Of a DNA stretch of 64,000 nt, positions 46,117-49,501 are shown one piece after another. The translations under genes and the position numbers were made by a program. Each line of letters opens with the position of its first letter. Position 1 is the stretch's first letter. Under the pieces are notes generated by a model that was not told the DNA's origin, did no database searches, and was given only the letters and a program-made list of their open reading frames with translations. Source of the DNA: a virus; UHGV virus genome UHGV-0033085, one strand, 5' to 3'.

Positions 46117-46368
46117 ATGCTAGGCAGCCTGATGACAAAGCTAAAAGTTGCTTTGATTACGCTGGCTGCCGTTCTTTTCGTTCTTGTCGGCGCTTACACG
46201 ATGGGCGGGAATGCGGCGCGACGAGCAATGGAAGAGAAGGCAAAACAGGAAGACAGAAAACGACTTCAAAGCACAGTGGAAGTGGTGAATGAGACGAGCA
46301 ATAAAATACGTCAGAAAGATGCTTCTGCCGTTCATCGTGAGTTGTATGATAAGTGGGTGCGTCATTAA
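46117..46368 (+). CDS. i-spanin-like protein (Rz-like)
   Basis: N-terminal TM helix then charged helical region. Confidence 0.45.
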   Translation: MLGSLMTKLKVALITLAAVLFVLVGAYTMGGNAARRAMEEKAKQEDRKRLQSTVEVVNETSNKIRQKDASAVHRELYDKWVRH

Positions 46369-46504
46369 ACCACAAACAGCCAGCGTGTTGTTCTGCGATG
46401 GGGCTGAGCCTATCTATATCAGCAATAATGATGTAATGACTGAAGAAACCGAACGCCAAATCCTTTTTCACAATACGATGGGAGAGAGGGTTTGTGGTTG
46501 GTGA
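46289..46504 (+). CDS. o-spanin-like lipoprotein (Rz1-like), out of frame with upstream gene
   Basis: Lipobox MISGC; overlaps the 3-prime end of the Rz-like gene; true start may be ATG 46319. Confidence 0.45.
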   Translation: MRRAIKYVRKMLLPFIVSCMISGCVIKPQTASVLFCDGAEPIYISNNDVMTEETERQILFHNTMGERVCGW

Positions 46505-46536
46505 TGTCGAAGTTCCCCTCAAATGAGGGGAACACA

Positions 46537-47058
46537 TTATTCTTCGAACAATTTTTCGATAGATTTTGTAGGATAGAACAAAGAACGCTCGTTGTTACCA
46601 ACCAGCTGGATAAAGTCTAAACTTTTATAAAACGCCTTGGCTTTGTCATTTAACGCCTCAACGAAAAGTCCATGAATGCCTACAGCAAGAGATGCATTGT
46701 ACACAACGCGCATTGCATGTGTTACAAGCATTGAGCCAAATCCTTGACCTTGAAGGGACTTGTCCAAAGCCAGCCTACCCAAAGTAACACTTGGAACATT
46801 CCGATAAGGTACCTTCTTTTGCTGGCTTCTTGAAGGTAAGGACTCCTTTTCAAAGCAGCTACCTGACAAAGTGTAATACCCTAACACTTTTGGTCTGCCT
46901 TCTTTCGTGCAGAGCACATAAGCGCGAAGAATTTTTCCCTCATGCTGCCTTTTTAAGTGGTTGGTTAAAAAGGCATTTAGTGATTCTTCACCGCAATCAA
47001 AACCATTCAAATCATAATCTTTCTCTCCAGAGAAAATTTCTATCTTTATATTATCCAC
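46537..47058 (-). CDS. GNAT-family toxin (TacT-like)
   Basis: GNAT motifs; paired with DUF1778-like antitoxin. Confidence 0.8.
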   Translation of the reverse strand: MDNIKIEIFSGEKDYDLNGFDCGEESLNAFLTNHLKRQHEGKILRAYVLCTKEGRPKVLGYYTLSGSCFEKESLPSRSQQKKVPYRNVPSVTLGRLALDKSLQGQGFGSMLVTHAMRVVYNASLAVGIHGLFVEALNDKAKAFYKSLDFIQLVGNNERSLFYPTKSIEKLFEE

Positions 47059-47065
47059 GAGTAAA

Positions 47066-47335
47066 CTACTCCATGCTTTTCAGACGATCAGCAGCTCGTT
47101 TCAGCTTGTCGTTCGGTGCCGGAGGATTGCTTATAGCGTCCATAACCAGATTCCAGGATTCTTCATTCAGAACTAGTCTACGGTGTTGCTCTATAACTTT
47201 CACGGCACGTTCAGATGCACTGCTAACCATAAACTGAGTAATGCTCTGGTTAGACATTGCGGCAGCTTCCTCGATGATGCTTTTATCGTCATCGGTTAAT
47301 CTCAAATCGATGCGCTGCTTTTTTAGTGCTGACAT
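47066..47335 (-). CDS. DUF1778-type antitoxin (TacA-like)
   Basis: N-terminal RIDLRLTDDDK...SITQFMVSSA motif; ORF track 47066..47374, ATG 47335 has AGGAGG RBS. Confidence 0.8.
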   Translation of the reverse strand: MSALKKQRIDLRLTDDDKSIIEEAAAMSNQSITQFMVSSASERAVKVIEQHRRLVLNEESWNLVMDAISNPPAPNDKLKRAADRLKSME

Positions 47336-47604
47336 GTATTCCTCCTGATGGCCGTGATGTAGGAAGGCCATCAATCTCCTCTGTTCAAACTGAGTTTTCG
47401 ACTCAAAAATTACTTTAAAAGGCTATAGCCCATTACGTGTGCATTATCAAATTGTGTACGGCATATCACCGTACTTGTAATATAGAGGTCATTGTTACTT
47501 TTTTCAACAGACAAATACAAGCTATGTTTGCCAATTGTTAATCACAACCTACCATTTAACCTTTACACCGCAGCCGTAGGCATTTAGGCTATATCACATA
47601 TAAG

Positions 47605-47653: not shown

Positions 47654-48322
47654 ATGACCAAGATCTTTGTGGTTGGCGGCACAAAGGGCGGGCCTGGCAA
47701 ATCCACCGTTGCCCAGCAAATTGCCGTTTGCCTGAAAGTCAAAAAGAAGAAGAAGGTTTATATCACTGATATAGATATTCAGCGCACGACAACGAGCTGG
47801 TGTGAAGACCGTCGACAGAACGAATACCTTGAGCTGATTCCTTTTGCATACGTTCAGGATGACATCATTAAGCACCTAAAATCGCTTCAGGGTAGAGCTG
47901 AGTTTGTAGTGGTAGATGCTGGTGGCTTCGACTCCGAAATTCAGCGACAAGCGATGCTGATGGCCGACGTTATCATTATCCCGCTTCGTCCTAAGCGTCG
48001 TGATTTGAAATCTCTGCGTGACATCGATCCTATTATCGACAATGTTCGCAATGTAAACGATAAAGTGAAGGTCCGCGCGGTCATGAACCAGTGCCCGGCT
48101 TTGCCATCACAAGTGTCTCGCATTCTGGCGGCTAAAGAGATTGTTGAGACGTTTGGAATCGAGTCTGCGCCAGTCAATCTATATAACCGCAACGTCTATG
48201 ATGATGCGGAAGAGTCTGGTCGTTCTATCTTTGAAATGACCGGTAGCGAGCGCGACAAAAAGGCGGAAGCCGAGTTTGAAGAATTTGTAGATTATCTGTT
48301 GAGTCTGGAGGAAGAAGAATAA
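47654..48322 (+). CDS. parA: ParA-family partition ATPase
   Basis: Deviant Walker A GGTKGGPGKST; small type Ib-like ParA. Confidence 0.85.
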   Translation: MTKIFVVGGTKGGPGKSTVAQQIAVCLKVKKKKKVYITDIDIQRTTTSWCEDRRQNEYLELIPFAYVQDDIIKHLKSLQGRAEFVVVDAGGFDSEIQRQAMLMADVIIIPLRPKRRDLKSLRDIDPIIDNVRNVNDKVKVRAVMNQCPALPSQVSRILAAKEIVETFGIESAPVNLYNRNVYDDAEESGRSIFEMTGSERDKKAEAEFEEFVDYLLSLEEEE

Positions 48323-48681
48323 TGTCCATGAAAATGGGTGACCTAGCAAAGCGCAAAGAGCCTGATGCACCGGCTAAGAACACAACTCCTTTGCGCCAAC
48401 CAGTCAGACCACAGGGACGCCCGACTCGTGGCAAAGAGAAAATTAAAAGCCGCACAATGTCACTGGAGGACGAATACTTCGAACTGCTGGAGATGATGAA
48501 GTTCATCCCTCGCTTCGAGAAGTTCACTCGTTCTGACGTGATTCGAGCAGCCATTTTCCATCTGGCAGAGAAGTCACCGCAGGAAATCGAGGACATCGTG
48601 AAATTGAATGAGGCGATCACCGCTGCCGATGTCACGATGCGTACCGATGAAATCAAACGAGAGTTGATGAAGAAAGGTTAA
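48322..48681 (+). CDS. ParG-like partition partner (putative)
   Basis: Small basic protein coupled to parA. Confidence 0.45.
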   Translation: MSMKMGDLAKRKEPDAPAKNTTPLRQPVRPQGRPTRGKEKIKSRTMSLEDEYFELLEMMKFIPRFEKFTRSDVIRAAIFHLAEKSPQEIEDIVKLNEAITAADVTMRTDEIKRELMKKG

Positions 48682-48733: not shown

Positions 48734-49501
48734 TTATGCCGCGCTAACACTATGTTCAGTCCTAACCACCCCAACCTTCACAAAAGGGCTACCGTAGCTT
48801 GGTGGCTTCTTGATTAATTTGCCTACATACAGTTTTCTAATATGCTCATCGGCTATTCTGCCAACAAATTCATAACGTTTTGTGTCGGGGCCAAGAGCTA
48901 TATCCCTTGTAAAGTACTGCTGAGAACCGGCTTTGACCCAGCATTCAATCTGATAAACTTCCATTATCAGCCCACCATATGTAGCGTAGGCATATTTGAG
49001 ATTCTCGTCTCTTGGAACCTTTGCCCATACGCCACGCGTAGCTTCATATAATGCCAGAGCGGACATTCCTGACTTGTAGGTGCTGTTTAGCAGGAAGGCA
49101 AGACCGGCGTGCTCAGGAGCAATTTCAGTTTCCTCTTGCAGCACTAAGTGATGGTAGGCGTCCAGTGATATTCTGCCCATCATGGAACCACTTCCTCGTA
49201 CCTTATTCGTAAGCTCTCCGACCCCCATAAGGTCGATGCATGTCGCCTCAACAAGTTTGGCTGTGGTTTCATCCATACCATGACGAAGTATATCTATGCC
49301 TAATTTTTTATTAGCCAAAAGTTCTTTGATCCGCATGGATTTGGGAGAGTCATCGGGATACTTGATGTGATCGAGACAACGAGTCGATTTGCCTTTTCCT
49401 ATGTAAAACGGTCTTTTCATCTTGTCTTCTGTATCATAGAGACAGTAAACATAGTATTTAGCCTTATCCAATGATCTCGCGTATACCGATAAATCGTCCA
49501 T
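48734..49501 (-). CDS. GIY-YIG nuclease domain protein
   Basis: N-terminal YYVYCLYD...PFYIGKGK motif. Confidence 0.6.
   Translation of the reverse strand: MDDLSVYARSLDKAKYYVYCLYDTEDKMKRPFYIGKGKSTRCLDHIKYPDDSPKSMRIKELLANKKLGIDILRHGMDETTAKLVEATCIDLMGVGELTNKVRGSGSMMGRISLDAYHHLVLQEETEIAPEHAGLAFLLNSTYKSGMSALALYEATRGVWAKVPRDENLKYAYATYGGLIMEVYQIECWVKAGSQQYFTRDIALGPDTKRYEFVGRIADEHIRKLYVGKLIKKPPSYGSPFVKVGVVRTEHSVSAA

Follow-up and report, generated by a model that had tools for sequence, protein, structure and literature searches.

What is encoded by the small leftward gene pair beside the partition genes of the virus genome UHGV-0033085, and what might it do for the element that carries it? The stretch of that genome analysed here, 64,000 nucleotides in length, is referred to as the window. 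A preliminary description had read the pair as a TacAT-like type II toxin-antitoxin (TA) operon, in which a DUF1778-like antitoxin is followed by a GNAT acetyltransferase toxin. Our analysis indicates, with a probability of roughly 80%, that the pair, carried on an SSU5-like phage-plasmid, is an intact type II TA operon from clade A of the GNAT-DUF1778 systems, the AtaRT/KacAT lineage, and most likely acts as an addiction module. The TA pair is real, ordinary and already annotated in public records. Escherichia phage Cyrano and CMS-2020a share 98-99% identity with this region of the window, and in the Cyrano record the homologues are already labelled 'KacT Acetyltransferase-type toxin' and 'putative antitoxin'. 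Our literature search found no paper with an experimental study of this allele.

Assignment to the AtaRT/KacAT lineage

The antitoxin matches the Pfam family PF08681 (TacA1, formerly DUF1778; E=5.7e-26), and the toxin matches the GNAT families Acetyltransf_1 and Acetyltransf_7 above the gathering score, with modest scores of about 29 bits. Neither protein has an NCBIfam equivalog above the cut-off, and therefore RefSeq names them only 'GNAT family N-acetyltransferase' and 'DUF1778 domain-containing protein'. Among the structures in the PDB, the toxin aligns without gaps to AtaT of Escherichia coli O157 (6GTS and 6AJM; E=8e-79, residues 1-172) and to KacT of Klebsiella pneumoniae (5XUN and 5ZGN; E=4e-74). 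The other GNAT toxin structures give weaker matches, from about 1e-20 (best 2.5e-20) to 3e-3; these include 5FVJ and 7BYY, which we take to be TacT and ItaT, respectively, structures of the TacT and ItaT types lying at about 1e-11 to 3e-3. The antitoxin aligns end-to-end, also without gaps, to KacA (E=6.6e-42, the best match) and AtaR (E=1.3e-40), and is 76% identical to the latter. Judged by the E-values of the PDB matches, the toxin is nearer to AtaT/KacT than to the TacT, ItaT or AtaT2 clades. The label 'TacAT-like' is thus appropriate for the family as a whole and inappropriate for the lineage, which is that of AtaRT/KacAT (toxin 69% identical to AtaT and 66% to KacT). Bikmetov et al. (2022, PMC9177977) place AtaT and KacT in the basal clade A, in which the toxins acetylate similar sets of aminoacyl-tRNAs, those bearing glycine as well as hydrophobic amino acids; the TacT-type toxins of clade D are specific for Gly-tRNA, and clade B acts on Ile/Leu/Val (PMC9177977).

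The conserved acetyl-CoA-binding and catalytic residues, on which the identification of the toxin had been made to depend, are present. The acetyl-CoA loop QGQGFG (residues 103-108) is retained, as is the catalytic Tyr144, the equivalent of KacT Y145; the inactive form of KacT that was crystallised is Y145F (PMC6698736). All four KacT residues involved in dimer or antitoxin contacts, Y48, G67, Y86 and V119, are kept as Y47, G66, Y85 and V118. In the antitoxin, R8, D10 and R12, which are the DNA-reading residues of KacA (PMC6698736), are invariant in the alignment, and M65 and I68 are also kept. The Pfam, PDB and residue comparisons therefore uphold the original call of a DUF1778-like antitoxin with a GNAT toxin.

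The AtaR-AtaT system of E. coli O157:H7 has the same operon order and sizes as the window pair, and both of its proteins align gaplessly over nearly their full length; Y144, G108, the QGQGxG loop and R8/D10/R12 are common to the two systems. However, ataRT is chromosomal (between livJ and panM), whereas the window pair is phage-plasmid cargo, the start codon is ATG in AtaT and GTG in the window toxin, and the DNA identity is only 65%. KacA-KacT of K. pneumoniae, with which the window pair shares the functional residues listed above, is chromosomal as well. TacA-TacT of Salmonella and ItaR-ItaT of E. coli have the same domain pair, the same chemistry of aminoacyl-tRNA N-acetylation and the Pfam name TacA1 in common with the window pair, but they are far more distant from it, and their substrate range is different and narrower.

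Gene structure and selection

The two genes form an antitoxin-first bicistron. The leftward arrangement, the coordinates and the peptide given in the preliminary description match both minus-strand open reading frames (ORFs) exactly, the antitoxin N-terminus being MSALKKQRIDLRLTDDDK. Between the antitoxin stop codon and the toxin GTG there is a gap of 7 nt, similar to that in ataRT. The antitoxin gene has a Shine-Dalgarno (SD) sequence AGGAGG at 47346-47341, 5 nt before the ATG, and the toxin GTG has a GGAG 10 nt upstream, within the final antitoxin codons. Compared with the 89%-identical ET220 allele, the dN/dS is 0.035/0.607 (~0.06) for the toxin and 0.010/0.249 (~0.04) for the antitoxin, and by this measure both genes are under strong purifying selection.

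A longer antitoxin of 101 amino acids, starting at the in-frame ATG 47371 (as in the Cyrano record) or at TTG 47374, was considered and rejected. This frame is broken by a 1-nt insertion in the ET220 allele, and the conserved nucleotides of the leader are read in different frames in other lineages. The start equivalent to 47335 is used by PGAP, AtaR and KacA.

Promoter and operator

The strand sequence of the predicted operator (47474-47456) is GTACGGTGATATGCCGTAC, and it starts 4 nt past the -10 element of a promoter that is the best sigma-70 match in the region (10/12 in a consensus scan). The operator pattern is unique in the window, where 0.02 occurrences are expected by chance. The crystallised KacAT operator is TGTACGGTTATTAACCGTACA (crystal DNA, AAATGTACGGTTATTAACCGTACATGA), and the KacAT palindrome spans the kacAT transcription start (PMC6698736). 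Both operator half-sites and their spacing in this 27-bp crystal DNA are shared with the window. In addition, the chromosomal ataRT promoter carries TGTACGGTGACATACCGTACA, with the same half-sites GTACGG/CCGTAC and a 7-bp spacer, which is TGACATA there and TGATATG here. From the position of the promoter we infer that transcription of the window operon starts near 47472, inside the left operator half-site.

We compared about 65 distinct homologous loci, which came from 58 Enterobacterales genomes as well as viral contigs and plasmids. Almost all of the Enterobacterales homologues examined have both half-sites upstream, with 0 mismatches, and the 7-bp spacer varies freely. Of the 68 distinct homologous segments, 63 have a -35/17/-10 promoter, the end of which is separated from the operator by 2-7 nt, usually by 4. 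By homology, the autoregulatory site is well supported. It does not lie in the interval 47336-47420, where autoregulatory palindromes had been suggested; the inverted repeats there are leader hairpins, and as operator candidates they were rejected, their sequence differing between homologues and not being operator-like. Two IMG/VR contigs (L116 and L117) have two tandem operators upstream of the antitoxin gene, a perfect GTACGG-N7-CCGTAC and then a degenerate GTACAAAAGCAGGCCGTAC. These copies are 14-15 nt apart, with starts 32-33 nt apart, and are followed by a leader of the window-type long class.

The leader of the antitoxin mRNA

Members of the clade differ widely in the distance from the operator to the antitoxin ATG, which is between 14 and 222 nt. 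In the characterised operons it amounts to 26-30 nt (about 26 nt in ataRT, which lacks a leader hairpin, and about 30 nt in kacAT, L046), whereas the leader of the window pair is 120 nt long and structured, with three candidate hairpins designated hp1 to hp3 (Table 1). None of 40 dinucleotide shuffles is as stable as the SD-adjacent hairpin hp3. Among 27 representative leaders of at least 36 nt, 14 have an SD-adjacent hairpin that beats at least 95% of its shuffles, whereas chance would give about 1.4. Between sub-lineages the stem sequences bear no relation to one another, examples being GATGGCC/GGCCATC in the window, GACCGCCC/GGGTGGTC in Enterobacter soli, GCTATCA/TGATAGC in Pseudescherichia and CCTCAC/GTGAGG in a Citrobacter phage-plasmid.

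A covariance model was made for the homologous long-leader class, to which a metagenome scan added six members, and the class comprises 16 distinct sequences. In this class, which represents only about seven independent lineages and whose alignment was fitted to the model, 84% of cells pair, against 20-46% when the partners are slid, nine pairs have changed on both sides, against 2-5 when slid, and the covariation score was reached by 0 of 500 shuffles. For the single hairpins, hp3 is 89% paired with five compensated pairs, hp2 84% with three, and hp1 74% with one. The support for hp1 as a conserved helix is weak, given this pairing and its disruption in the lineage of L135 and L177-L179. On the strength of the shuffles and the covariation, we regard the SD-adjacent hairpin as a real feature.

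The leader as a whole does not fold into an unusually stable structure (z=-0.28), and in a comparison of the two strands the sense strand is the more stable one in 10 of 21 cases. A known RNA family was rejected, as the leader has no Rfam match at E<=1; of the two Rfam listings obtained, one is a fragment of a group II intron (46422-46496) and the other mir-4922, and both score well under the gathering threshold. An anti-SD switch, in which RNAalifold pairs the hp3 loop CUUCCU with the SD, was likewise set aside as speculation, because the covariation term is weak, at -0.66, and neither L024 nor L043 retains the loop motif.

An SD-like AGGAG (47380-47376) and an ATG are located directly 5' of hp3, so that the hairpin is bracketed by the purine tracts AGGAG and AGGAGG. 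Most members of the long-leader class have a similar GAG[G/A/C]AG tract before hp3. The upstream AGGAG could be a standby ribosome site or the start of a short upstream ORF. For the hairpin, plausible roles are those of a 5' stabiliser after processing of the leader, or of a modulator of ribosome access for which the upstream AGGAG possibly provides the standby site.

The length of the leader is very plastic, and the operator and the terminal hairpin are retained. In the parA-antitoxin intergenic region (2394-2721) of the Enterobacter hormaechei element pOSUCZKPC4-74-2 (L122), six tandem copies of CTGAAAA stand between the operator and the SD-adjacent hairpin. The leaders of L123 and L124, of 211-222 nt, are AT-rich and unrelated.

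The cassette and its neighborhood

The gene order around the pair is tail fibre, holin, endolysin, Rz/Rz1, TA, ParA and helicase. In blastn comparisons with SSU5 and PhiR41_1, homology is lost where Rz1 ends, at 46496/46501, and is found again from 47547 onward, which delimits an exchangeable cassette (Table 1). In SSU5 (L002, 2797-3953) and PhiR41_1 (L003, 2770-3945) the same slot is occupied by unrelated two-gene cassettes on the opposite strand, encoding proteins of 140 and 233 amino acids and of 132 and 258 amino acids, respectively. No Pfam or PADLOC match was found for this cargo, and the two cassettes may represent accessory or defence systems that are as yet uncharacterised.

To the left of the cassette, the spanin genes Rz (83 amino acids) and Rz1 (71 amino acids, with a lipobox-like ...ISGC) overlap in different frames at 46117-46504 on the plus strand, and their end is the left boundary of the cassette. 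Where the toxin and Rz1 genes converge, a GC-rich hairpin may serve as a terminator in both directions. On the right, the partition module, as initially described, is confirmed for ParA by its Pfam matches. A 119-amino-acid ORF in the ParB position (48322-48681, plus strand) overlaps the parA stop codon and has no Pfam match. The homologue in Cyrano is labelled 'RelE/ParE putative toxin', for which we found nothing in support here; a small partner of ParA that binds the centromere is the more likely identity of the ORF product. Further to the right, a protein of 255 amino acids (48734-49501, minus strand) matches the LEM-3-like GIY-YIG family in Pfam (E=5.5e-7) and PD-T4-3 in PADLOC (E=1.3e-23). 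Thus, parAB is flanked by two accessory loci, the TA pair on one side and the PD-T4-3-like gene on the other. PD-T4-3 is among the defence systems reported from SSU5-group elements (bioRxiv 10.1101/2025.09.12.675607).

Table 1. Features of the TA locus and its surroundings, in window coordinates
Feature	Position	Strand	Description
Antitoxin gene	47066..47335	-	89 aa + stop; ATG 47335, stop 47066; N-terminal DNA-binding domain of the ribbon-helix-helix (RHH) type (R8/D10/R12) and C-terminal toxin-wrapping region (M65, I68, N70, K77), predicted
GNAT toxin gene	46537..47058	-	173 aa + stop; GTG start 47058, stop 46537
Toxin acetyl-CoA loop, Q103-G-Q-G-F-G108	codons 46752-46735	-	By alignment to AtaT/KacT
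Toxin catalytic Tyr144	codon 46629-46627	-	By alignment to AtaT/KacT
Predicted operator GTACGG-TGATATG-CCGTAC	47456..47474	.	Palindrome; two antitoxin RHH dimers of the T2A4 complex expected to bind; binding predicted from homology
Sigma-70-type promoter	47479..47507	-	-35 TTGAAA (47507-47502), 17-nt spacer, -10 TATATT (47484-47479)
Untranslated leader	47336..47455	-	120 nt, operator to antitoxin ATG
Leader hp3	arms 47373-47366 / 47353-47346	-	Perfect 8-bp inverted repeat; 3' arm ends at first SD base
Leader hp2	47405-47391	-	Covariance model
Leader hp1 (weak)	~47431-47420	-	Covariance model
Exchangeable cassette	46502..47546	.	1,045 bp: terminator hairpin, toxin, antitoxin, leader, operator, promoter; lysis genes left, parA region right
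GC-rich 9-bp hairpin	46512..46533	.	Between convergent toxin and Rz1; terminator-like scan match; no clear U-tract on either strand
ParA gene	47654-48322	+	ParA/MipZ/CbiA Pfam matches; divergent from TA, 318 bp away

Occurrence on plasmids and chromosomes

The window-type allele was found on 145 PLSDB plasmids; these are nearly all non-mobilizable E. coli replicons of about 110 kb, together with derivatives of 62-66 kb, with the same neighbours, in E. albertii and Shigella. Among 5,426 complete E. coli genomes it occurs in about 155 replicon records (~3%). The parAB backbone is present in 737 plasmids, 241 of them from Escherichia. In the same Rz-parA slot and in the same orientation, SSU5-like elements of other genera carry alleles whose toxins are 63% (Enterobacter), 61% (Cronobacter), 62% (Citrobacter) and 50% (K. 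oxytoca) identical to that of the window, each with a perfect operator and its own SD-adjacent hairpin. The DNA identity of the parAB backbone between these genera is 80-87%. Since the toxins share only 50-63% of their residues against this 80-87% nucleotide identity of the backbone, the TA alleles appear to have been exchanged rather than to have diverged together with it.

Homologues were also found outside this slot. A chromosomal locus of the ataRT type occupies 1,626 chromosomal places, which among 5,426 complete E. coli genomes amounts to about 30%. A distinct allele, with a toxin about 71% identical, is carried by the E. coli plasmid pPEC1021-3 (L006) and by about 420 other PLSDB plasmids, mostly conjugative, from Citrobacter, Enterobacter, Klebsiella, Salmonella and E. 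coli; its neighbours in pPEC1021-3 are vapBC and a TnpB remnant near repB.

Mechanism and biological role

By homology to AtaT and KacT, the free toxin would dimerise and acetylate the alpha-amino group of charged tRNAs with acetyl-CoA, leading to a block of translation. As a member of clade A it probably has several targets, namely Gly-tRNA and hydrophobic aminoacyl-tRNAs including the initiator Met-tRNA. The C-terminal region of the antitoxin would wrap the toxin and occlude the acetyl-CoA site and the dimer interface, and the N-terminal RHH dimers would seat a toxin2-antitoxin4 complex on the palindrome. Because the palindrome overlaps the start of the TTGAAA-17-TATATT promoter, we propose that the operon is self-repressing. 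In KacAT, repression depends on the toxin:antitoxin ratio by 'conditional cooperativity' (PMC6698736). With 66-76% identity to two characterised systems, the biochemical mechanism can be predicted with high confidence.

The biological role is less certain. An addiction module is the most likely one, because the cassette is located divergently beside parAB on a low-copy plasmid prophage. Loss of the element would be penalised by post-segregational killing, and possibly also its displacement by a related element with a different allele. The phage-plasmid P1 likewise carries a type II TA system on a plasmid prophage, phd-doc, which stabilises the plasmid by post-segregational killing (established knowledge; mentioned in PMC7969092). 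However, the protein families and toxin chemistry of phd-doc are unrelated to those of the window pair, for which stabilisation is deduced from its context. The slot beside the partition genes and its recurrent occupation by this family favour stabilisation and/or competition between related elements.

Several observations weigh against this interpretation. At two of the C-terminal positions tied to neutralisation in KacA the antitoxin differs, with K77 in place of the functionally tested R77 and N70 in place of Q70; the substitutions are conservative, and AtaR, which neutralises AtaT, has the same two residues. Chromosomal homologues (ataRT and kacAT) are common, and the family is therefore not intrinsically a plasmid-stability device. 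Many SSU5-like elements, among them SSU5 itself, PhiR41_1 and most of those in Klebsiella, are maintained without this TA, so that it must be accessory rather than essential for maintenance. Finally, regulation may differ in detail from that of the characterised short-leader operons, because the 120-nt leader has no counterpart in ataRT or kacAT. It is conceivable, although we hold this only tentatively, that the long-leader members, the window allele among them, carry in the SD-adjacent hairpin an undescribed post-transcriptional element which sets antitoxin synthesis or mRNA stability and that, in parallel, the cassette is an exchangeable allele of the Rz-parA slot that mediates competition.

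Other tRNA-targeting TA toxins defend against phages, and the primary role of the pair might accordingly be abortive infection, in which an infecting phage depletes the labile antitoxin and the freed toxin stops translation, protecting the clonal population and the resident phage-plasmid. The PD-T4-3-like gene on the other side of parAB, the variable cargo held by the Rz-parA slot and the defence systems reported from SSU5-group elements (bioRxiv 10.1101/2025.09.12.675607) would fit such a role. We consider it unlikely as the primary one, given that PADLOC-DB v2 yields 0 families for both proteins at E<=0.01 and that our search found no demonstration in the literature of phage defence by a GNAT-DUF1778 pair; it is also not exclusive of addiction. 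Somewhat less probable still is that the cassette is chiefly a determinant of competition or exclusion between related elements, with chromosomal ataRT acting as an anti-addiction locus or being cross-regulated. In that case, different TA alleles in the slot would enable a phage-plasmid to withstand replacement by another. The much greater divergence of the TA alleles in the slot than of the parAB backbone agrees with such a role, as does the frequency of ataRT in E. coli chromosomes, and transcriptional cross-talk with ataRT is predicted because neither the operator half-sites nor R8/D10/R12 vary within the clade. Nevertheless, this argument is purely inferential, and cross-neutralisation between these 69-76%-identical pairs is hypothetical.

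A last alternative is that the genes encode a non-toxic GNAT acetyltransferase with a small regulator, or the remnant of a decayed, inactive TA system. The modest scores against the generic GNAT families, the absence of an NCBIfam equivalog and the generic RefSeq names would be in accordance with it. Yet over its whole length the toxin shares 66-69% of its residues with two enzymes of experimentally shown toxicity and keeps all tested functional residues, the dN/dS is about 0.05, and the operator and promoter are intact, which makes this alternative very improbable. An intact addiction module of the AtaRT/KacAT lineage remains the reading that we prefer.

Implications

As a TA module the locus is routine, since the chemistry, structures, operator and regulation of the family have already been published. 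Its value for annotation is that the antitoxin start is fixed, the operator and promoter are placed, and the pair is assigned to the broad-specificity clade A rather than to TacAT. Two aspects may be new: that an SD-adjacent hairpin is conserved in the leader, and that the alleles of the cassette turn over at the junction of the lysis genes with parA. SSU5-like phage-plasmids occur commonly in clinical E. coli, Klebsiella, Enterobacter and Salmonella, and in them this junction is a slot for cargo that appears to have been filled repeatedly by diverged alleles of one TA family. The SD-adjacent hairpin, if functional, would mean that a TA family hitherto described only as transcriptionally autoregulated has a further, post-transcriptional level of control.

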